From Escherichia phage AV101, in sequence record OQ973471.1: 64,000 nt of DNA. The stretch is one strand, 5' to 3'. Position numbers and translations under genes: made by a program. Positions 2,643 through 62,345 of this stretch are shown one piece after another. Every line of letters begins with the position of its first letter. Positions within the stretch are counted from its first letter, which is position 1. The notes beneath the pieces are model-generated. The model was not told where the DNA came from, did not search any database, and saw only the letters and a program-made list of their open reading frames with translations.

Positions 2643-2971
2643 AAATATTCTTTCCTGGTCAGAAAGTACCCGAAGAAATAGAAAAGGTCGAGTTATTTGG
2701 TTATAAAATCGGTGATCCGTTCCTGCGATTTTCTTCACCATGTATCGTGAAGCGCGATCATGAAGGGTATTATGTGCGCCCAATCATTCTCATGGGTTCT
2801 GTCATGACGCTGAGAGCCAAAACAGACTCCGTCGTTATTACCGGAAGTCCTAACATACCCAATGGGAAGACCACACTCAATGGAAAGCCTATCCTGTCGT
2901 CTTGGGCGTTAATTGGATTTCTGTCTATAATCTTGTTTTATCGTTACCTTACCGACTTGGGGATCTTATGA
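2639..2971 (+). CDS. hypothetical protein with C-terminal transmembrane segment
   Basis: ATGA overlap start; C-terminal [13 protein letters not shown] hydrophobic stretch. Confidence 0.4.
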
Positions 2972-3297
2972 AAAAGCCACGCATCACAGGACATCAACTC
3001 TGCGTCCTTTTAGGAATGTTGAACTTTGAGAAAGGTCATTGCCGTTATGGTGAATGGTACTTTCATCCCAAATCCTGGACCAATGACAAGGGCAACACCG
3101 TCTGGACGTTCCGGGTATGCCCGAACGCTGGTGGTTTCACCTCCGTCAAAGGCAACCCCCGCACTGGGGCTTCCCTGTTGTCCAAAGGGTTAATTGAACC
3201 AGCTGGCTCAATGGTTCATGACGGTTCTTACGTGAACTGGCCGAACACTGAGGTGACGTTCTATCGCCTGACCGAACTCGGTAAATCTTATCTCTGA
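2968..3297 (+). CDS. hypothetical protein
   Basis: ATG at 2968 overlapping upstream stop (ATGA); track ORF 2902..3297 trimmed to this ATG. Confidence 0.4.
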   Translation: MKKPRITGHQLCVLLGMLNFEKGHCRYGEWYFHPKSWTNDKGNTVWTFRVCPNAGGFTSVKGNPRTGASLLSKGLIEPAGSMVHDGSYVNWPNTEVTFYRLTELGKSYL

Positions 3298-3367
3298 ATA
3301 AAGATTCAGCGGTTATTGAAGAAGGGGGAGTATATACTTCCCCTTAGTTTATTAAGAGGAACCGGAA

Positions 3368-10360: not shown

Positions 10361-11020
10361 TCAGATTCCGTGGGCTTGTATTAGCTCACGGAGTCTCTGT
10401 TTTGAATATGTGGTATCCTCATCCGGAACCACAGCATTCGTCTTCCTGAGCAAGAACGCCTCTGAGTTCCAGTAGATGTCATCACGCAGAATCGTATCAT
10501 ATAGATGAATGAAACCAACGATCTTGTTCAGACCGACAAGGAACCAAATCGGGAACTTCTTGATGATGATGTCTGTCAGCAACGGTGGATGGCCTGTACC
10601 CGTCCCCTTGATGTACTCAATGAAGGTGCAGTTGCGCTCCCTTATGGCAGGGATCATCGCCCGCTCGAACTCCTCAAGGAAGTTATATGTGAAGTTCTCG
10701 TACAGCTTACGGTATTCATCATAATTGGCCTGAGCCTGGCGTGTAAGTAATGTCGTCACCCAGGTCTTGGGTGATTTGATGAAGTTGGCAATGATGTAGT
10801 TCTCTACCACTTCACCCTGTGATGACTCGAACCGACGGGCAAGGCGAGCAAACTGTTTGCACACGGCCTCCTTCGCCAAGAACGTCTCGAACTTGTAATT
10901 CATCGGTCCATACAAGCTGTAATCGAAGTCCTTAGTGGTGAAGTGCAGCTTGATCGCCATGAAGACACAGTAAACGTTGAACGCCCGCTCGAACTCCATC
11001 TTCTGCCACTCTGTTAGCAT
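10361..11020 (-). CDS. helicase loader (gp59-like)
   Basis: 219 aa; segment pattern matches the T4 gp59 sequence recalled from memory; AGAGGAA RBS. Confidence 0.45.
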   Translation of the reverse strand: MLTEWQKMEFERAFNVYCVFMAIKLHFTTKDFDYSLYGPMNYKFETFLAKEAVCKQFARLARRFESSQGEVVENYIIANFIKSPKTWVTTLLTRQAQANYDEYRKLYENFTYNFLEEFERAMIPAIRERNCTFIEYIKGTGTGHPPLLTDIIIKKFPIWFLVGLNKIVGFIHLYDTILRDDIYWNSEAFLLRKTNAVVPDEDTTYSKQRLRELIQAHGI

Positions 11021-11268
11021 TTGCGTTCCTCTTCTTTAATAAATTGCAATAACTCTTCCATCAGCCCTTTCTTCTTGATGAACTGTAACACCAGGATGAA
11101 GCGACGGAAGGAGCGGGGGACAACACGATAACCCTTCGCCCAGTAGTTCACAACATTAGAACAATCCAATAAACGAGCCAGCCCAGATTGTGACACCCCG
11201 AGGCTCAGCAGAACCTTGTACATGTACTTCTTGTCATTTACCGGAAGCTCTTTCATTCTTAAACTCAT
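11014..11268 (-). CDS. XRE-type helix-turn-helix protein
   Basis: LLSLGVSQSGLARLLDCSNVVNYWAKG HTH signature. Confidence 0.45.
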   Translation of the reverse strand: MSLRMKELPVNDKKYMYKVLLSLGVSQSGLARLLDCSNVVNYWAKGYRVVPRSFRRFILVLQFIKKKGLMEELLQFIKEEERKC

Positions 11269-13152: not shown

Positions 13153-13265
13153 GTGGTGTCTCCAGGGTTATATGTGCTGCTATTATAACCCTGGGGACTT
13201 CAATAGATTATTGGCGGGTACGGGATCTTGCCTGGCCGATAATGAGGTCAGTGTGTAGTCCTCGG

Positions 13266-13607
13266 TTATTTCTTCGGGGGTTCAATTGAGGTGAAAGAAT
13301 CCTTCCAACTCTTGAATTTTTCAACCAGAGCTTCTTTACCCAGCTCGTCATTTGACACGCTGTGAATATAGGCGAATGCTCCATAGCCGGATCCTGACAT
13401 AGCCTTGCAGATGCGCAGACTGACCAAAGAATCTCCTACGGAAACAAGATAGTGGTCACGACGATTGTTCAGGGCATAATGGTTGTCGTGAAACTTGTCA
13501 ACAATAACACAGTTCTGAGGTTCGACGTCAATCGGTAGCCCGTTGGCTTCGGATCCGCCGCGCCCAAGTACGCAGCCTGGGAATAATGTTTCTACGAGTG
13601 TGGTCAT
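13266..13607 (-). CDS. hypothetical protein
   Basis: 113 aa; AGGAA RBS; TATAAT -10 element upstream. Confidence 0.4.
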   Translation of the reverse strand: MTTLVETLFPGCVLGRGGSEANGLPIDVEPQNCVIVDKFHDNHYALNNRRDHYLVSVGDSLVSLRICKAMSGSGYGAFAYIHSVSNDELGKEALVEKFKSWKDSFTSIEPPKK

Positions 13608-13859
13608 GGTATGTTCCTTCTGTAAGTTCCCATGTATTATATGGGTGAATCGTTTAATGAATTATTTGTTATGGAAACCCAGAGCCTTGTGGACTTCTTC
13701 ACGATTTTAATTTCGGCCTGAGCCTCTGTGTGATTATCCGGTGCTTGTGATGTCAGACGAGGACTTTGTAAACAGCATTGGCGTCAATGGCATCGATTAG
13801 ACAACGGATCTCAGCGCATCAGGGGCTTACCCAACAGCCAGTTGAAATACTTGCGCATG

Positions 13860-23512: not shown

Positions 23513-23788
23513 TCAATATAGAAAAACCATTTCCGGTGGCCAACAATTTGTTAGCTCGACTTTTGCGAACCGTGGTTGGCAGTACGCATCAACCGACTCA
23601 TCAAACAGACAGTGTTCTACATTTGCAATCATCAGATCATCATCCACCACTTCAACAGAATGGACAATGATCTTGTGGTCATACGTCAGGCAACCGTCTA
23701 AATGCATGTTGTCAGCGCGGAGGTGTTGCATGATGAAATACTCTATGATCGACTCAAGGACAGTCGTCAGCTTCAGATAACGTTTCAT
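23513..23788 (-). CDS. hypothetical protein
   Basis: ATG at 23788 after GAGAGG RBS; overlaps a plus-strand ORF judged less likely. Confidence 0.3.
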   Translation of the reverse strand: MKRYLKLTTVLESIIEYFIMQHLRADNMHLDGCLTYDHKIIVHSVEVVDDDLMIANVEHCLFDESVDAYCQPRFAKVELTNCWPPEMVFLY

Positions 23789-39993: not shown

Positions 39994-40024
39994 AAATACC
40001 TCCACAATGAATGCAGAGGTATTT
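39994..40024 (-). promoter_or_regulatory. stem-loop sequestering endolysin RBS
   Basis: 9-bp stem AAATACCTC/GAGGTATTT; the 3' arm on the mRNA contains GGAGG RBS, ATG 4 nt downstream. Confidence 0.4.
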
Positions 40025-42120: not shown

Positions 42121-42391
42121 TTACCCACCCGGTACGGAAAAGGATAGATTTATACTCTTCCACCATGTCCTGGTCGTAATCAGTTTGACGGGAATACGAT
42201 TGGGCTTCAGCACAATCAGCGCCAAGTTCCACAGAAGCCATAGCGGCTTGCATGTTCAATTTATTTTTGTACTCAGAAACCATCCCATGTCTTTCCAAAT
42301 ATTCACTTGCCTGGATAAATCGTTTTTCTCTGGCGAACATTAGACCATAGTTGATTTCTGAAAACTCTCTGTTGTATGCTTTTAATGACAT
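42107..42391 (-). CDS. hypothetical protein
   Basis: 94 aa. Confidence 0.4.
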   Translation of the reverse strand: MSLKAYNREFSEINYGLMFAREKRFIQASEYLERHGMVSEYKNKLNMQAAMASVELGADCAEAQSYSRQTDYDQDMVEEYKSILFRTGWVNEIS

Positions 42392-42400
42392 AATGACCTC

Positions 42401-43012
42401 TTAAATCGCTGGTCTCTGGAACACTTCGGTCACAGTATAGTCTACACCACGACTTTGAGCTATACACAGTTGACGCCAAGCCCCATACAGGATATTCTGT
42501 TCCCCAGCCATGTTGCGCTCAAAGTGGGCGAAGCCGTCGAGGAGTTCCATGTAGCTGCGCATATGCCGGGTAATGGTTCTTCCTCTCTTGATCTGTTCAT
42601 CAAGGTACTTCTGATAATGCTCTGGTGATGACAATAAAGAGTACTTCATGTCTGGCACATGAACTGGCATCAGGGACTTGCGGGGTGTGAAATAGAACAG
42701 CCCCCACTTCGGCGGTAGGTCTTCAACCCTGATCACGTCCTGAGGGCAGACATAAAAGCGGTATGCGCCCATGCCCGTCGTCGGATCCATGCGATGAGGC
42801 TTCTTCTTGTCGGTAAGGAAATCAGAGCGAGACACCTTCACTTCCATCAGGATAGAGCAACCGCCGGAACGGAACCCGATGGCATCAGGTGATTCTTTGT
42901 TGTCAAACGAATTTGGCTCGATGAAGACAGCGCCGCAGTTCATGCGACCGCGCAGGTAGTTGGCCGCGATCTCACATCCTTCGCGGTGTGACGGGATAAA
43001 GATTTTGCTCAT
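42401..43012 (-). CDS. PD-(D/E)xK-like nuclease, tentative
   Basis: D...ILMEVKVSRSD pattern; start ATG 43012 after AAGGAAAGGA RBS. Confidence 0.35.
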   Translation of the reverse strand: MSKIFIPSHREGCEIAANYLRGRMNCGAVFIEPNSFDNKESPDAIGFRSGGCSILMEVKVSRSDFLTDKKKPHRMDPTTGMGAYRFYVCPQDVIRVEDLPPKWGLFYFTPRKSLMPVHVPDMKYSLLSSPEHYQKYLDEQIKRGRTITRHMRSYMELLDGFAHFERNMAGEQNILYGAWRQLCIAQSRGVDYTVTEVFQRPAI

Positions 43013-43423: not shown

Positions 43424-43516
43424 GATGTTGTCCTCAGAAAAAGAAATCCCCCTGTATTTAGGGGGATCCAGTTACAGACCAAGTTCTTTCGTCGTGGCGT
43501 CGTCTAGTGCAACCTC

Positions 43517-44095
43517 CTAGACAGGCTTAACACCGAGGAACTTGGCAATGTCAGCAGCCAGGTTTTTACCCTTGCTGATGTCGTGTTCTTTACCGCCGAC
43601 AGTAACGATAACATACGGGTCATCTTCACCACCGAAGTTCACGGTGATCGCCTTGCCGATGCCAGGGATGCCAGGGATGCCAGAGTATTCGAACTCAGTA
43701 CGACCACTCTTGCGAGACTTGCCAGCACCCAGTGCTTTACCGATCATCTTGTCCATGTTCGCCAGTTCCTGAGCATAGGATTCGGTCACCTGGCCTTTGT
43801 CGGCAGACTTGCCAAAGAAGAATTCGAAGCCGTCATGGACAGCAACGACTTCCTGACCTTGGGAAATACCGTGAGTCTGGTCTGGGGTCAGCTTCACCTT
43901 GATGGTGTTGCCGTTGGTTAACTCCAGGTTGTAGACATCCGCCTGATTGTCAGGAGTGATCTGGGTCACGGTAGCGCCGGAACACCACTGGGTGCCGTCA
44001 GCTTGCTTGGTGATGGATACGGTCTTACCCTGGACACCAGCATGTGTCTGAGGTTTAGCGGCTTGTTCTTTAAAGTATTGAAGGAACGGTTTCAT
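43517..44095 (-). CDS. late protein of unknown function (likely virion-associated)
   Basis: TATAAATA late-promoter motif on minus strand (44110-44117) and GAGGAGA RBS. Confidence 0.5.
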   Translation of the reverse strand: MKPFLQYFKEQAAKPQTHAGVQGKTVSITKQADGTQWCSGATVTQITPDNQADVYNLELTNGNTIKVKLTPDQTHGISQGQEVVAVHDGFEFFFGKSADKGQVTESYAQELANMDKMIGKALGAGKSRKSGRTEFEYSGIPGIPGIGKAITVNFGGEDDPYVIVTVGGKEHDISKGKNLAADIAKFLGVKPV

Positions 44096-48735: not shown

Positions 48736-49020
48736 TCATTCGTAGATGAGGTGGTAGGATTCCTCGATGCACTCCAGCCAGCCGTAGACGAACTGTAGAG
48801 GGTCATCCCATGCCGTCTTGGTCGCGACGGTAAAGTTGCCGTCCAGGATCTGCATATCTTGGTACTTGTTGAAAGCGAGTACAGCATCAACCACAATCAG
48901 GCCACCCTGCTCAAGATAACGATTCGGAGTGACGGTCACTTGGTAATGAGGATTCCTGCGATTCCATATCTCCACAGCAATGTCACAGGATTCCTGAATT
49001 TCATCTTTGTTTTCTGACAT
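48736..49020 (-). CDS. hypothetical protein
   Basis: 94 aa. Confidence 0.4.
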   Translation of the reverse strand: MSENKDEIQESCDIAVEIWNRRNPHYQVTVTPNRYLEQGGLIVVDAVLAFNKYQDMQILDGNFTVATKTAWDDPLQFVYGWLECIEESYHLIYE

Positions 49021-49331
49021 ACGTTTGTCTCAGATGTTCGGTAAAGGATTTACCCAGCTTGCGGAATAGTTTAATACGACCAATGACTTTGACGTAAACA
49101 TCTCCGTGGCAGGGGCGCGGCTTACACCAGCACCCCAATACCTTCCCGTCAAGATCAAGGAGTTCATCCTCAGTGATATCCCCCTTCAATCAGGCGCACA
49201 TACAGGTCGTCCTCAAACAGTTCGATACAGACGCCTCGTCCATGGTCTTTGACCTCAAACGGGTTTCCCCATTTACCAGGCCGACCAATGTAAACGTCAT
49301 ATGGCTCCTTCTTGAAGTGGACGACTTTCAT
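49001..49331 (-). pseudogene. DUF4326-like gene interrupted by a 1-nt frameshift in a C5/G5 homopolymer
   Basis: N-terminal half (MKVVHFKKEPYDVYIGRPGKWGNPF...) in one frame stops at 49170-49172; C-terminal half (LDLDGKVLGCWCKPRPCHGDV) in the +1 frame; shift at homopolymer 49180-49184. Confidence 0.5.
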
Positions 49332-49492
49332 TTCAGGATTTGACCTGCAAGTAGATAACAGAACCAGACAGAGAACCCGAGATACCCCAGTGCTTTCAGG
49401 TAGTTTTTCCTTTCGACTTCACGAGAAAACGCAACGATGTCAATGATGCATGCAAAGACCAGGATTGCGAGTTTAATTTGTTCGTAGTTCAT
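49328..49492 (-). CDS. 54-aa small hydrophobic protein (not in ORF track)
   Basis: ATG just downstream of gp46 stop; stop overlaps next ATG (ATGA); translation MNYEQIKLAILVFACIIDIVAF... Confidence 0.35.
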   Translation of the reverse strand: MNYEQIKLAILVFACIIDIVAFSREVERKNYLKALGYLGFSVWFCYLLAGQILK

Positions 49493-49494
49493 GA

Positions 49495-51840
49495 TCAATC
49501 CTTCTTGATAACTTCAGTCAGGCCGTTTCGCAGGCCGTAGCGAATGTTGTGTTGGAAGTATTCCTGGAACTCCTGCTCACGCTGGCTGATGACAAACAGG
49601 TTGTTCCCACCGAACTTATGCTTCAACATCTCAACCGATTCCTGCACCCCGCGCTCGCTCATGTTCTCAAGGATCTCGTCCAACACGAACAGGTTACATT
49701 GTACAGACGCCTTGAGGTTAGCCACATCGCGCAGAGCTAATGTCACAGCCAGGTTCAGACGACTGCGCTGACCAGTAGACAGGGAGAAGATGCTCTGTCC
49801 TTTGCGGCCTGCTGCGCTCATGGTGATCTCAAAGGTATCGTCAACAACGATGTCCAAGAACATGTTGAGGGCTTCAAGATACTCGTTGATCTTGCTATTG
49901 AGGAATGGAAGATACAGGGCGATGATACGCGCCTTGGTCTGGTCATCTTTCAAGAAGAACAGCAGGTGCTGTAAGTCCTGGAGTTCCTGGTCGGCATCCT
50001 CGCGGCGCTGGTATAGATCCTCCAGTTCACCCTCCAACGCAGCGATAGAGTTCTCTAGGTCGGTGGTAGGTGTTGGCTGTACAGCCAGTTTACGCTCCAG
50101 ATCGGCAATAGACGCCACGAGAAGAGCACGACGGGCTTTCAGCTCGGCGATCTTATCATCGACGGCTTTAATCCCGCTGACGGCATTCTCTCGCTTCTGT
50201 TGCAGCGACGCAGTGATGTCTTCAAAACGAACGTTCAGCGCCTTGCGGATGTCAAGGATCTTCTGTTGACATTCACGGTTCAGGGAGTTGCATTCAATCG
50301 TGGCAGCGTCATGGAACCCCTGAATATCACGACGCAGCTGCTTGATGTTGTCAACGATTTCGTCGGCCTTCTTGCGCATTGCATCCAGTTCAGCATCCAA
50401 CACAGCAATGTCAGCAACCAGCTTGTCGTCCTGGGCTTTGTGGTCATCGATCAGGACATTGATATCGGCGGTAACTTTGTCCAGTTGATCTAACTTCGAC
50501 TGTAGTTCCTGGATCTGAGGATTGTACTCACTCTCAATCCGCGCCTTGGTGTCATCAGACACCAGTTGGGTACATGTTGGGCAAGTCCCCATGTCGTGGA
50601 AGCGCTTGATGGCCGACTGATGTCCATCCATTTCGGTCTGGAACTTGATGCGGAAGTTCTCACCCTGCTGGCGGCGCTGAATAGCAGCGTTCAGGGCGTC
50701 CAGGTTTGTGTTGCGCTCGGTGAGCAGGGTGTTCTTGCGTTCGGCCACTGTAAAGGCGCGGTCACGCAAGACCTGAAGATCATGCTCCGCAGTAGACACT
50801 TCGATGCGCTCATAATCATCGGCCTTTTCCTGAGCGACATCCTTCACCGCCTGGATCTTGGCATCAAAGTCTTTCTTGACAGCCTCGATTTCCACCATGG
50901 ATTCATCATGCAGGCGGCTTTCTACCGTCTTCATTTCCTGGCTGGCTTCGAACTCAACCGCAGTGAGGCGGGTGCGCTCTTCGTTCTGGGCGGCGATGTC
51001 AGCATCCAAGGAATTCAGGGCTTCCTGTTGCTGTACAAGGATATCGGCCGATTGCTGTTGGATCAGGGCGTTGGATTGCTCGATCTGCTGAAGCTGCGTC
51101 TTCTTGTTGGTGTGGTCAACAACCTTCAACGCACATTCATTCGCGATCGTGTCCAGCTTTTCGTTCGCTTTCTTGATGGATGCCTTGACATCTTCGTTCA
51201 TCAGGCTGAAGAAGCCCAAGTCCCAGATAGTCTCCACCATGGCGCGGCGGTCGGCTGTGTACATCTCCGTGAACGGAATGAACTTCTCTTTGCCCAGCAC
51301 CAGAGAGTTCTCAAACATCTTCTGGTCCACGCCGATGAGGTTCACGATGTACTTGTTCATGTCGGCTTTGGCTGCTTCGTTATCGATCTGCAACCACTTG
51401 CCGTCCACCATCTGGTAGACTTCAACAAAGTCAGGTTTAATACCACGGCGAACCTTCCATTCGTTACCACGGCAGGCAAACTCCACCTCACCCACACATT
51501 CCTTGCGGCTTTGTGAGTTTACCAGGCCTGCCTTCTTCTCCTTCTTACTGTACGTGTCGTTGTACAGTACGAAAAACAGCAGCCATACCAGCATCGTGGA
51601 TTTACCCGCGCCGTTGTCATCAGACGTAACAAGGGTGGCCGGGTTGCGCTGATAATCAATCTCCATGAACTGATTGCCGATGGAGCGGAAGTTCTTGGCG
51701 CGGCCTTTGCGGAAGGTCAGTTTGTGTGTAACAACGTTACGCACTTCAAATGGGACTTCAACCTCGACCGGGGCGTCGGCTTCCTTCAAAAGATTACCAA
51801 ATTTGGTCAAGATATCTGTGCTCTGAGTCATGTTATGCAT
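49495..51840 (-). CDS. recombination endonuclease subunit gp46 (Rad50/SbcC-like)
   Basis: Walker A DDNGAGKST, long coiled coil with zinc hook CPTC, signature SLSTGQRSRL, Walker B LFVLDE. Confidence 0.85.
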   Translation of the reverse strand: MHNMTQSTDILTKFGNLLKEADAPVEVEVPFEVRNVVTHKLTFRKGRAKNFRSIGNQFMEIDYQRNPATLVTSDDNGAGKSTMLVWLLFFVLYNDTYSKKEKKAGLVNSQSRKECVGEVEFACRGNEWKVRRGIKPDFVEVYQMVDGKWLQIDNEAAKADMNKYIVNLIGVDQKMFENSLVLGKEKFIPFTEMYTADRRAMVETIWDLGFFSLMNEDVKASIKKANEKLDTIANECALKVVDHTNKKTQLQQIEQSNALIQQQSADILVQQQEALNSLDADIAAQNEERTRLTAVEFEASQEMKTVESRLHDESMVEIEAVKKDFDAKIQAVKDVAQEKADDYERIEVSTAEHDLQVLRDRAFTVAERKNTLLTERNTNLDALNAAIQRRQQGENFRIKFQTEMDGHQSAIKRFHDMGTCPTCTQLVSDDTKARIESEYNPQIQELQSKLDQLDKVTADINVLIDDHKAQDDKLVADIAVLDAELDAMRKKADEIVDNIKQLRRDIQGFHDAATIECNSLNRECQQKILDIRKALNVRFEDITASLQQKRENAVSGIKAVDDKIAELKARRALLVASIADLERKLAVQPTPTTDLENSIAALEGELEDLYQRREDADQELQDLQHLLFFLKDDQTKARIIALYLPFLNSKINEYLEALNMFLDIVVDDTFEITMSAAGRKGQSIFSLSTGQRSRLNLAVTLALRDVANLKASVQCNLFVLDEILENMSERGVQESVEMLKHKFGGNNLFVISQREQEFQEYFQHNIRYGLRNGLTEVIKKD

Positions 51841-55078: not shown

Positions 55079-56793
55079 ACCTCAAACACGGCATCAGTGA
55101 ACCAAGCGGGGAAGAACTCTGGGTTGCGCATCATCAGTGATTCGAAAGAAGAATCAAGGATGTACGTCGCAGCCCAGTCATTCACGCCCCTGACCGAACG
55201 CCCACACATCTGAACGATACGCAGTACCGCCATCCTGAAGTACGCCGATGGGTCCACACTGTTGACGTGGGCCACCAGAGGATCACCAAGGTAATCGTAT
55301 GGCACCTTGATCAAGATCTGAAATCGACTATAATCGCCTTTGAAGTCATACCCCTCTTCCATGGCCGGACTGGCGATGACACAAGGTGTCTTCGTCCTGA
55401 ACGCGTGTTCCATGATGTCCATCAGAGCCTTACGAGTACGAGGAACGTGAATCATATTCCGGTACTTACTGAACTTTTGTAGAGCCAGGGCGCGGTCATA
55501 ACTGACTGTGTGAATGATGCCAGACTGCCCAGGGTGGAATGCGATGATTTCATCCACGTATTCAGCCAGCTTCTTCATCTCGTAGTCACCCATGTTCGCC
55601 GTCATCTTCATGATGGGCATGTAGTTGACTTTCCGGTTCTCAATCGGGATAGGGTTGCCGATCTGAATCTTGTGGTACTCACCCTCGCGGATACCCAGTG
55701 ACCTGGCGTACGAGTCAATCCCACAAATGGTCGCCGACATGTGGACGTGGTAGTCACCCTTGCGGAAAAGACCGAACTGGGATACATCAGAGGCGATGAC
55801 AGGCTTGAACTGAATCATACCCTTGTCCTTCTCCTGTACGATGAAAGTGCTGGCGTTGGTCTGCCCCATGATACCACAGTAGTCGCTGAGGTTGTGAAGA
55901 GTATCAATAATATCAGACAGCTTCATCACCTGGGCTTCAGTCAGGCGCTCGTCTTCTACCAGTTCCTCAAGAGTTTCCAGCAGAGATTCAACCTTGCCGT
56001 GTAGTTCATCAAATATCGCATGCATCTCACCAGACAGGGAATACAGCTTGCCCAATTCATAGTTCTCTGTGCGGATGATGATATCCTTGATGGTCTCCAC
56101 GATAGGCACTCCCTCGGGGATCGTAAGCAGCCCTTCCACAGCCTTTGTGCTGTATTCCATGATAGTATGCTCTAGGAGCGTAGAGGGCATTTTATGACAC
56201 TCGTCAAGGATCAGCATATCGGCGCGGTTTTCCGGCTTCATACAGATCGTCGTGCACATCTCCACCATCATGGCGGCGTTGGTGCAGCGCAGGGAGGAGA
56301 CGTCGGTCCACTGTCGACGCGCCTGAACATATGGGCAACGATTCTTACTACAGTGGCCATCACGGCATGCCATACGACACTGAATGGCGTTGTAGTATAG
56401 GTCGGGACTGATGTGGCAACGATAGTTCTTCTTGCCCTTCAGGATGTCTATCGCCACGGCTTTCTCTGCTGCATACTGATCCTGTAAACCTTTGGTCGGC
56501 GTCGTGATAGACGTGCGAAACTGACCATACGGGTTGTGCTCAAGAACCAAATGGCGAAGCACGTTATGGATGGTAGTGCCGATGAGGGATTTACCCACAC
56601 CAGTCGGAGCCTCGATGATCACGTGTTTGAATTTCTTATTCACAAGGGCATCAATGGCTTCAACGATGCACTCCATCTGGCCGGGGTTGGCGGTGTCATA
56701 CGGGAAGAACTCAGTGGCAAGAGACTTGATGCGGTCTATGCTGACTGGTCCGACGCCGCCAAGCGCCTTGGTATATTGGTTGAATGCTGTCAC
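55075..56793 (-). CDS. DinG/XPD-family Fe-S DNA helicase
   Basis: Walker A APTGVGKS, DECH box, four-Cys cluster (C..C..C..C between helicase motifs); GTG start with AGGAGGAAG RBS. Confidence 0.65.
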   Translation of the reverse strand: MTAFNQYTKALGGVGPVSIDRIKSLATEFFPYDTANPGQMECIVEAIDALVNKKFKHVIIEAPTGVGKSLIGTTIHNVLRHLVLEHNPYGQFRTSITTPTKGLQDQYAAEKAVAIDILKGKKNYRCHISPDLYYNAIQCRMACRDGHCSKNRCPYVQARRQWTDVSSLRCTNAAMMVEMCTTICMKPENRADMLILDECHKMPSTLLEHTIMEYSTKAVEGLLTIPEGVPIVETIKDIIIRTENYELGKLYSLSGEMHAIFDELHGKVESLLETLEELVEDERLTEAQVMKLSDIIDTLHNLSDYCGIMGQTNASTFIVQEKDKGMIQFKPVIASDVSQFGLFRKGDYHVHMSATICGIDSYARSLGIREGEYHKIQIGNPIPIENRKVNYMPIMKMTANMGDYEMKKLAEYVDEIIAFHPGQSGIIHTVSYDRALALQKFSKYRNMIHVPRTRKALMDIMEHAFRTKTPCVIASPAMEEGYDFKGDYSRFQILIKVPYDYLGDPLVAHVNSVDPSAYFRMAVLRIVQMCGRSVRGVNDWAATYILDSSFESLMMRNPEFFPAWFTDAVFEV

Positions 56794-56843
56794 TTTCTTC
56801 CTCCTATGGGATTCGCCTATAGTTTACCCGATCCCCAAGAACG

Positions 56844-56879
56844 AAAAAGCCGGAGTACAATGCTCCGGCTTTCTCTTTT
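56844..56879. terminator. bidirectional terminator hairpin between HU and helicase genes
   Basis: Stem GCCGGAG/CTCCGGC, 7-nt loop, A-run upstream and T-run downstream. Confidence 0.6.
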
Positions 56880-56922
56880 GCCATGCCCTGTATTGCAGAG
56901 TCTGGCCGCGCGTCAGATAGAA

Positions 56923-57201
56923 TTACTTGCCGTTGGCAGCGTTCTTCAGACCTTCGCCCACTTTGAATTTCACAACGTTTTTCGCCGCGATCTGAATGGT
57001 CTGGCCGTTCAGAGGGTTGCGGCCTTCACGCGCTTCTTGGTGTTTCACTTCGAACGCACCGAAGCCGACCAGCTGTACAGATGCGCCTGCAGCAACTGCA
57101 GTTTTAACACCGTCGATAAAGGATGCCACTACTTTCTCCGCTTCGCCTTTGGTGATATTCTGGGTCGAAGCAATGTGGGCAACAAATTCAGTACGATTCA
57201 T
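56923..57201 (-). CDS. HU/IHF-family DNA-binding protein
   Basis: Strong HU signature (VQLVGFGAFEV...GRNPLNGQTIQIAAKNVVKFK), 92 aa. Confidence 0.85.
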   Translation of the reverse strand: MNRTEFVAHIASTQNITKGEAEKVVASFIDGVKTAVAAGASVQLVGFGAFEVKHQEAREGRNPLNGQTIQIAAKNVVKFKVGEGLKNAANGK

Positions 57202-57326
57202 CTGGATTTCTCCGTTGGGTTAATGTTTACTTTCATGTTCACTACAAGAGGGCTACAGTTTAACTAACAAATTTTATTGAATAAAGCGGAATTAATAGCC
57301 TTTCACCACGATTACAGTCTTTGTGC

Positions 57327-61785: not shown

Positions 61786-61832
61786 TGATATAGTCTCTTG
61801 GTTTCAAATGGGCGGGGTAATCATACCCCGCC
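61786..61832 (-). repeat. cassette variant with GGCGGGGTA-ATCA-TACCCCGCC hairpin + CATTTGAAA + GAGACTATATC-ATG
   Basis: Hairpin and flanks repeated at 62346-62392. Confidence 0.6.
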
Positions 61833-61838
61833 GTGGGT

Positions 61839-62345
61839 TTATAGAGTAACAAGTGATACGGTAAAAACCATCGTCCCGTCTGTTGCCATTTTTCTTGAAA
61901 CTGGTATGACGCGAGGCTGGCAGAATATCCATTCTTTCTCCATGGACGCCAAGTCCAGCATATCCATTTCTGATTCATCGCCTTTGTTCACAAATTTTTC
62001 TAGAGAACCATAGACATTAAGCCCCTCCGGGAGTCTGTTTCGATGTTTGTAACAAATGCGGGCAACAGCTTTGGTTCCGTACGATTTAGAAAATTTTTTG
62101 GCCACATGCTTCAGTTCACTGAAGCTAAGACAAGAGTCCCATGTCTGGAACATGTCGCCTCGTTCAAACATTATCTCTAAACGCGCAACGTCCTCTTTAG
62201 GCAACCCACGATAAAGTGTGGTCGTCTGTGGTTCGCGCAATTCTTGCACCAGATCGCGGACGGCAGGGGAAACAGTACCGGGGCGCATGATGTGGGACTT
62301 ATCATGGACGAGGTAAAATAAATCTTGAATTTGTTGATCGGTCAT
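61839..62345 (-). CDS. candidate mono-ADP-ribosyltransferase (R-S-E type), tentative
   Basis: Spaced TLYRG (Arg), SCLSFS (S-x-S) and DESEMD (E-x-E) in order and spacing reminiscent of T4 Alt/Mod-type ARTs. Confidence 0.3.
   Translation of the reverse strand: MTDQQIQDLFYLVHDKSHIMRPGTVSPAVRDLVQELREPQTTTLYRGLPKEDVARLEIMFERGDMFQTWDSCLSFSELKHVAKKFSKSYGTKAVARICYKHRNRLPEGLNVYGSLEKFVNKGDESEMDMLDLASMEKEWIFCQPRVIPVSRKMATDGTMVFTVSLVTL

Follow-up and report, generated by a model that had tools for sequence, protein, structure and literature searches.

The DUF4326 domain has been placed, as a proposal, in the rhodanese-phosphatase superfamily (PMC9503650), and is predicted to process terminal phosphates on ribose in ADP-ribose derivatives and to act as an enzyme on NAD+/ADP-ribose-derived molecules in phage-host conflict (PMC9503650; PMC7824862). 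The function of the intact protein is a prediction, and no experimentally established DUF4326 function was found in the literature searched. The domain is widespread, with matches in 2,061 of 50,697 phage records (tblastn), and the PHROG assignment of the gene described here is phrog_464, 'unknown function'. The closest described copies are the orthologues in Ackermannviridae phages, as in A221 (UTQ72617.1), Salmonella phage vB_CECAV_050 and Shigella phage Ag3 (orf00116), where an intact DUF4326 gene follows gp46 (SbcC-like) and a gene for a 54-aa membrane protein and is itself followed by a 94-aa ORF. Escherichia phage AV101 (Agtrevirus) has the same gene order, but unlike these intact orthologues its DUF4326 copy contains an additional G and leaves the reading frame past codon 50. 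We examined this copy in a stretch of 64,000 nt from the AV101 record (OQ973471.1), referred to in its full length as the window.

The disrupted DUF4326 / NrdA.1-family gene lies on the minus strand at 49001-49331 and is 331 nt long, while every relative has 330 nt (109 codons and a stop). The extra base falls in a run of five C at exactly 49180-49184 in the plus-strand context gtgatatCCCCCttcaa, which is G5 on the coding strand; the relatives have G4 here, in GAA-GGG-GAT (E49-G50-D51). Upstream of the run, an N-terminal ORF of 53 aa (49170-49331, minus strand) starts with the ATG at 49331 and ends with the TGA at 49172-49170. Its product, MKVVHFKKEPYDVYIGRPGKWGNPFEVKDHGRGVCIELFEDDLYVRLIEGGYH (MKVVHF...VRLIEGGYH), holds native residues 1-50, after which translation from the native ATG runs into the out-of-frame tail GYH and stops. 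The C-terminal frame (49001-49189, minus strand) is +1 relative to the frame upstream of G5 and gives 62 aa from a mechanical TTG, (TTG)KGDITEDELLDLDGKVLGCWCKPRPCHGDV...KQR and stop; native residues 51-109 are read in it from position 49180, beginning with D51 (codon GAT at 49180-49178). The codons at the junction are AUU GAA GGG GGA UAU CAC UGA, and skipping one G turns them into GAA GGG GAU AUC ACU, that is E-G-D-I-T. The preliminary description had placed two halves of one protein in adjacent frames with their junction at this C run, which is exact according to both the sequence and the ORF list, and it had foreseen a continuous protein of about 110 aa once one base was removed; deletion of one G gave a single ORF of 109 aa.

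The two parts differ in their prospects of being translated. The ATG of the DUF4326 ORF shares bases with the stop of the 56-aa ORF that precedes it (ATGA), and the N-terminal 53-aa ORF is likely the only part of the gene to be translated. The C-terminal frame, which contains the invariant GCWCxPxxCHGD motif, has no ATG, and no recognisable Shine-Dalgarno or other ribosome-binding sequence was seen in the 12 nt 5' of its TTG; this frame has no credible start codon. The public databases hold a single match to the stump, WJJ54070.1, 'hypothetical protein [Escherichia phage AV101]', which is exactly the 53-aa product including the GYH tail, while the exact 62-aa C-terminal product was absent from the protein collection searched.

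Assignment to the family rests on the Pfam profile PF14216 DUF4326 (profile length 82, gathering threshold 25 bits), which the repaired 109-aa protein matches with 82.7 bits (E 3e-23). The N-terminal half alone scores 38.7 bits (E about 1.7e-9) over profile positions 3-46, and the C-terminal half alone likewise scores 38.7 bits (E about 1.7e-9) over positions 52-80. As each ORF matches PF14216 on a complementary part of the profile, the two are halves of one protein and not a chance pair. All invariant PF14216 residues tested are present in the repaired protein (D12, R17, G22, N23, G66, C67, C69, P71, C74 and H75), and in the window they are divided between the two ORFs. A search with tblastn further found the NrdA.1 of phages T4, T2 and T6 at 41% identity over residues 2-86 (E about 6e-13), and the orthologue is annotated in relatives both as 'DUF4326 domain-containing protein' and as 'NrdA.1'. 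The DUF4326 assignment of the preliminary description is thereby borne out by Pfam and by the annotation of the relatives. The reading frame is not continuous across the domain, since the extra G shifts it past codon 50; the locus is a DUF4326 family member by descent, and as sequenced it is a disrupted copy.

An alignment of 68 sequences shows invariant residues on either side of the break, V4, D12, R17, G22 and N23 before it and L60, L65, G66, C67, C69, P71, C74 and H75 after it, hence both halves of the gene are needed. The AlphaFold2 model, which was made from the 98%-identical cluster representative P0003 and not from the repaired AV101 sequence, is one compact domain (pLDDT 94.7, pTM 0.86) in which the CWCxPxxCH loop lies between a strand at 64-67 and a helix at 75-91. 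In the model the break comes at the end of helix 32-49, so that strand 64-67, the two C-terminal helices and the C-W-C-x-P-x-x-C-H-G-D loop all lie beyond it. The 53-aa stump therefore lacks the probable active-site loop. No sequence homologue was found in the PDB, and a Foldseek search against the PDB gave nothing significant; weak PF22751 DUF488-N3a matches were seen in 17 of the 68 homologues, the best with E 0.0056. The proposed rhodanese-phosphatase placement would call for a fold resembling rhodanese, PTP or Cdc25 domains, in which a strand and a helix flank a catalytic Cys loop.

The locus was compared with its relatives. It matches Ackermannviridae phages (Aglimvirinae/Agtrevirus) with up to 98.7% identity. 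In all 13 GenBank relatives compared, with DNA identities between 98.7% and 85% and with Kuttervirus SilasIsHot, Agtrevirus Ag3 and EspM4VN among them, the gene is one 330-nt CDS with G4. In the DNA alignment with these 13 the extra G is the sole gap column within the gene. The same G4 and an intact ORF were found in eight IMG/VR contigs and in ten Logan/ENA assemblies, the latter all encoding the identical 109-aa protein, and three metagenome contigs matched a 20-nt G4 pattern; altogether G4 and an intact ORF are present in all of the roughly 34 related sequences examined. The corresponding G5 21-mer had zero matches in the viral, metagenome and genome collections. A looser 15-mer gave 39 matches in IMG/VR, none of which aligned to the gene, and these were set aside as chance. 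No match to the locus was found in complete E. coli genomes. The comparison with orthologues in related phages, proposed earlier as a check, has thus been made, and none of the orthologues is split.

In its repaired form the protein matches A221 UTQ72617.1 and the vB_CECAV_050 orthologue with 100% identity; at the DNA level the repaired gene differs from theirs at 2-4 synonymous positions (two synonymous sites for A221). Comparison of the repaired gene with its relatives gave dN/dS values of 0-0.16, which indicates that the DUF4326 gene is maintained elsewhere by purifying selection. Apart from the extra G, we detected no other defect in the AV101 gene. With G4 in all relatives, no match to G5 and a repaired protein identical to that of relatives, the lesion is private to AV101 and very young. 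The ten contigs encoding the identical 109-aa protein were considered as possible copies of AV101 itself and rejected, as they share 95.3-97.6% identity with the window over about 20 kb. The collections searched held no independent AV101 assembly from public reads, and no record of the 53-aa product as a called gene in such an assembly.

Two further observations were made among the relatives. In the Kuttervirus Salmonella phages vB_STmST313_KE31 and pertopsoe the 900-nt locus is stretched to 1,247 nt and matches in two pieces, owing to an extra insert of about 350 nt that holds one more hypothetical gene. The same insertion of about 350 nt is found in OR844944.1, 'Enterococcus phage Efm 3-10' (38,511 bp, unannotated), which matches the locus over its full length with 84% identity and is probably a mislabelled or contaminant sequence.

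The genes around the split copy are arranged as in the relatives. Upstream, the gp46 / SbcC-like recombination endonuclease subunit (49495-51840, minus strand) stands first in the same run of minus-strand genes and serves as the anchor of synteny with the relatives. It is followed by the 5' neighbour, a small predicted membrane protein (phrog_34593; 49328-49498, minus strand; 'putative membrane protein' in relatives), whose stop overlaps the DUF4326 start. The 3' neighbour encodes a 94-aa protein with no function assigned (phrog_4165; 48736-49020, minus strand), the ATG of which lies 20 nt inside the DUF4326 3' end, an overlap annotated likewise in all relatives. The premature stop lies about 150 nt 5' of this overlapping start, and translational coupling to the 94-aa gene may be reduced or lost when ribosomes stop at 49170.

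Decayed copies of the gene are also found elsewhere in the family. In a Klebsiella phage May-like contig (Logan SRR8788203_6, L069:1471-1701, P0122) DUF4326 is a pseudogene: a nonsense codon interrupts it at position 26 (CCT TTT TAA), and about 87 nt are missing internally, between short GGACG(A/G)G repeats. What remains is a 66-aa chimeric ORF, to which GenBank gives the name 'ribonucleoside-diphosphate reductase subunit [Klebsiella phage May]'. In Dickeya Limestonevirus the upstream small membrane-protein gene and the first ~19 DUF4326 codons are deleted; in Dickeya phage RC-2014 (NC_025452.1, L070:801-1073) similarity starts at the base after the gp46 stop, and what is left is an unannotated remnant of 84 aa with a GTG start that keeps the CWCxPxxCHGD motif. 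This 5' truncation pattern is seen in about 19 Dickeya records. These copies show at least two independent losses of the DUF4326 gene within the family, and the gene is dispensable in some lineages at least. A 45-aa member of a JGI cluster was considered as a third truncated copy and rejected, the DNA being intact with G4; this call (P0010, Ga0495776_009395, L071:1201-1338) starts from an internal TTG and is accompanied by an antisense 78-aa call, and is a gene-caller artefact.

We suggest that the G4 of GGG-GAT (G50-D51) gained one G in an otherwise perfect DUF4326 / NrdA.1-family gene in the AV101 lineage. The insertion would have arisen by slipped-strand mispairing at the short homopolymer during phage DNA replication, as a Streisinger-type frameshift, and it may have been fixed by a bottleneck during plaque purification or propagation, or shortly before isolation. 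It would have been tolerated as a lesion in an accessory gene dispensable on the laboratory host. The event is very recent, since the gene has no other defect and its repaired protein is identical to that of two relatives. The stump ends before the beta-strand, the GCWCxPxxCHGD loop and the C-terminal helices, and as the C-terminal frame offers no credible start, the G5 allele is null as sequenced; at most, tRNA-Gly slipping by +1 on GGG-G, rarely and spontaneously, would leave it severely hypomorphic. We favour this reading, a very recent replication-slippage mutation by which a dispensable accessory gene became null, over an error in the consensus, and give it a probability of roughly 0.6.

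The strongest competitor is that the extra G is a sequencing, assembly or consensus artefact, the phage being truly G4 with an intact gene and one spurious G having been deposited. A change of one base in the length of a homopolymer is the commonest type of consensus error, and here the extra G is unique among about 34 related sequences, in a gene that is otherwise flawless and under purifying selection elsewhere. The freedom from other decay, which we read as a sign of youth, is equally what an artefact is expected to look like, and a null allele is somewhat unexpected in a natural isolate given the strong purifying selection in relatives. The AV101 genome (OQ973471, 156,759 bp) comes from Illumina MiSeq reads (Nextera XT, 2x250) that were put together de novo in CLC Genomics Workbench, with automatic annotation by RAST (PMC10844046). 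The AV101 publications are silent on the split and report no resequencing. On the other side, the data are neither 454, Ion Torrent nor Nanopore, and the run is just 4-5 nt long. Illumina MiSeq has no tendency towards homopolymer indels of this kind in runs so short. The independent loss of the same gene in relatives makes a real loss plausible, too.

An indel census of the window bears on the same question. The 64 kb were aligned to RPN242, A221, CECAV_050 and PC3, and indels with lengths not a multiple of three were listed. In this four-way census the G at 49180-49184 is the only frameshifting indel private to the window within a conserved CDS, although the window contains 80 homopolymers of at least 5 nt and 209 G/C runs of four, no other one of which is disrupted. 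Nine other private small indels, at 1711, 3340-3343, 38181, 38186, 39994-39996, 43430, 44099, 46938 and 56891, all lie outside the annotated genes of the relatives. By our own count, using the gene calls of locus L085, the intergenic share is about 6.5%, such that about 93% of random miscalls would fall in coding sequence; as random miscalls would be found mostly in genes, yet are not, there is no sign of systematic indel error. The distribution of the private indels instead looks like that of real mutations filtered by selection. The nine intergenic indels fall in roughly 4 kb, about 2 per kb, and from this density a neutral stretch of 330 nt is expected to gather about 0.7 indels, hence a genuine frameshift in a dispensable gene would be unremarkable. 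Weighing both sides, we regard the artefact as a serious alternative, less likely than a real mutation, with a probability of about one in three.

Some differences met in the census do not concern the split gene. Indels at 11115-11119, 23522-23526 and 40998 were considered as errors of the window and rejected, since they are private to RPN242, the window matching A221, CECAV_050 and PC3 at these places; in RPN242 (OL656110.1) they appear in gp036, gp054 and gp081 as single-base homopolymer differences, which may be frameshifts or record errors. A private patch of about 110 nt at 2857-2968 differs from all four relatives by a cluster of indels (+2, +8, +8/+4+4, -1); it coincides with the junction of the overlapping plus-strand ORFs 2639-2971 and 2902-3297, and has the look of a segment that diverged or was replaced locally rather than of a frameshift. 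The private 1-nt insertion at 56891 falls inside a 243-aa plus-strand ORF (56536-57267) that runs antisense to the 5' end of the helicase, the intergenic spacer and the HU-like gene. With this insertion inside it the ORF is not conserved in the relatives, and it is probably spurious. The window is further mosaic: it does not have the roughly 700-nt HNH/homing-endonuclease gene adjoining the helicase-loader gene (~11014-11018) in RPN242, CECAV_050 and PC3, and its segments 500-746, 13211-13803, 42121-42411, 43467-43786 and 61832-62342, of 200-600 nt, are without counterpart in RPN242.

Far less probable than an artefact is a functional recoding or contingency site, that is programmed +1 frameshifting at G5 or a phase-variable switch between G4 and G5. 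Runs of G are prone to +1 shifts, and tRNA-Gly frameshift suppressors act at GGGG. In the recoding model the P-site tRNA-Gly slips from GGG to GGG and GAU is read next, and such a +1 slip on GGG-G would restore the wild-type protein exactly. RNA folding downstream of the junction is also slightly better than in shuffled controls (z = -1.86), but the only hairpin is mildly stable, lies about 37 nt downstream and is formed by sequence common to the unshifted relatives, and we rejected it as an RNA stimulator. The 0-frame A-site codon GGA is an ordinary sense codon, neither stop nor rare, and the 3-12 nt 5' of the GGG codon, CGCCUGAUUGAA, contain no Shine-Dalgarno-like stimulator at a prfB-like spacing. 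The two-frame arrangement is moreover found in none of about 34 relatives, which keep an in-frame G4 down to 85% DNA identity. As for a phase switch, no polymorphism in tract length was seen among the relatives, and the tract of 5 nt (4 nt elsewhere) is below known contingency tracts, typically 7 nt or more. Three options had been left by the preliminary description; an error and a recent pseudogene both stand, while a slippage-prone programmed or phase-variable site is disfavoured by the G4 in every relative, the 5-nt tract and the missing hallmarks of +1 recoding.

A variant of this idea takes G5 as real but not as a simple null. With the gene regarded as a predicted NAD+/ADP-ribose-processing counter-defence gene, +1 slippage or reversion from G5 to G4 would provide a low level of DUF4326 enzyme, a crude expression dial that might be advantageous on the hosts of AV101; we consider this speculative and even a little less probable than a dedicated recoding or contingency site. 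Least probable of all is a gene fission into two separately functional small proteins. Both halves are still open and each matches its own part of the DUF4326 profile, but the C-terminal half has only the mechanical TTG with no visible ribosome-binding sequence, the split is found in no other genome, both halves contribute conserved residues to what is predicted to be a single compact domain, and selection has had too little time to shape so young a split.

The main value of the result lies in annotation hygiene, as the 53-aa 'hypothetical protein' of AV101 is the stump of a DUF4326/NrdA.1 gene. The AV101 record should be flagged for a frameshifted pseudogene, or corrected if G4 proves to be the true sequence. 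Should the mutation be real, AV101 provides a natural knockout, already at hand, of a gene that is widespread, and a first phenotype for DUF4326 could come from growing it on different hosts beside a G4 revertant or a close relative.

The AV101 copy can also be set against other known systems. The May-like and Limestonevirus copies resemble it as independent inactivations of the same accessory gene in the same phage family, although their lesions are older and larger than a one-base insertion, and that of Limestonevirus is common to many genomes. With the programmed +1 sites of E. coli prfB and of the capsid and tail genes of Listeria phage PSA, the AV101 junction shares the +1 direction and the possibility of perfect re-pairing of the P-site tRNA, but unlike them it shows no conservation, no slow or stop codon in the A site and no upstream Shine-Dalgarno sequence, and its relatives are single-frame. 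The Streisinger-type frameshifts of T4 rII and lysozyme likewise gain one base in a short mononucleotide run and terminate prematurely; these were shown genetically, whereas the mutational origin in AV101 is deduced from one consensus sequence. Like them, the AV101 allele should in principle be revertible by the loss of one base, and the event is an ordinary one, a single-base homopolymer insertion that splits an accessory gene of a known family and is unique to the AV101 isolate.
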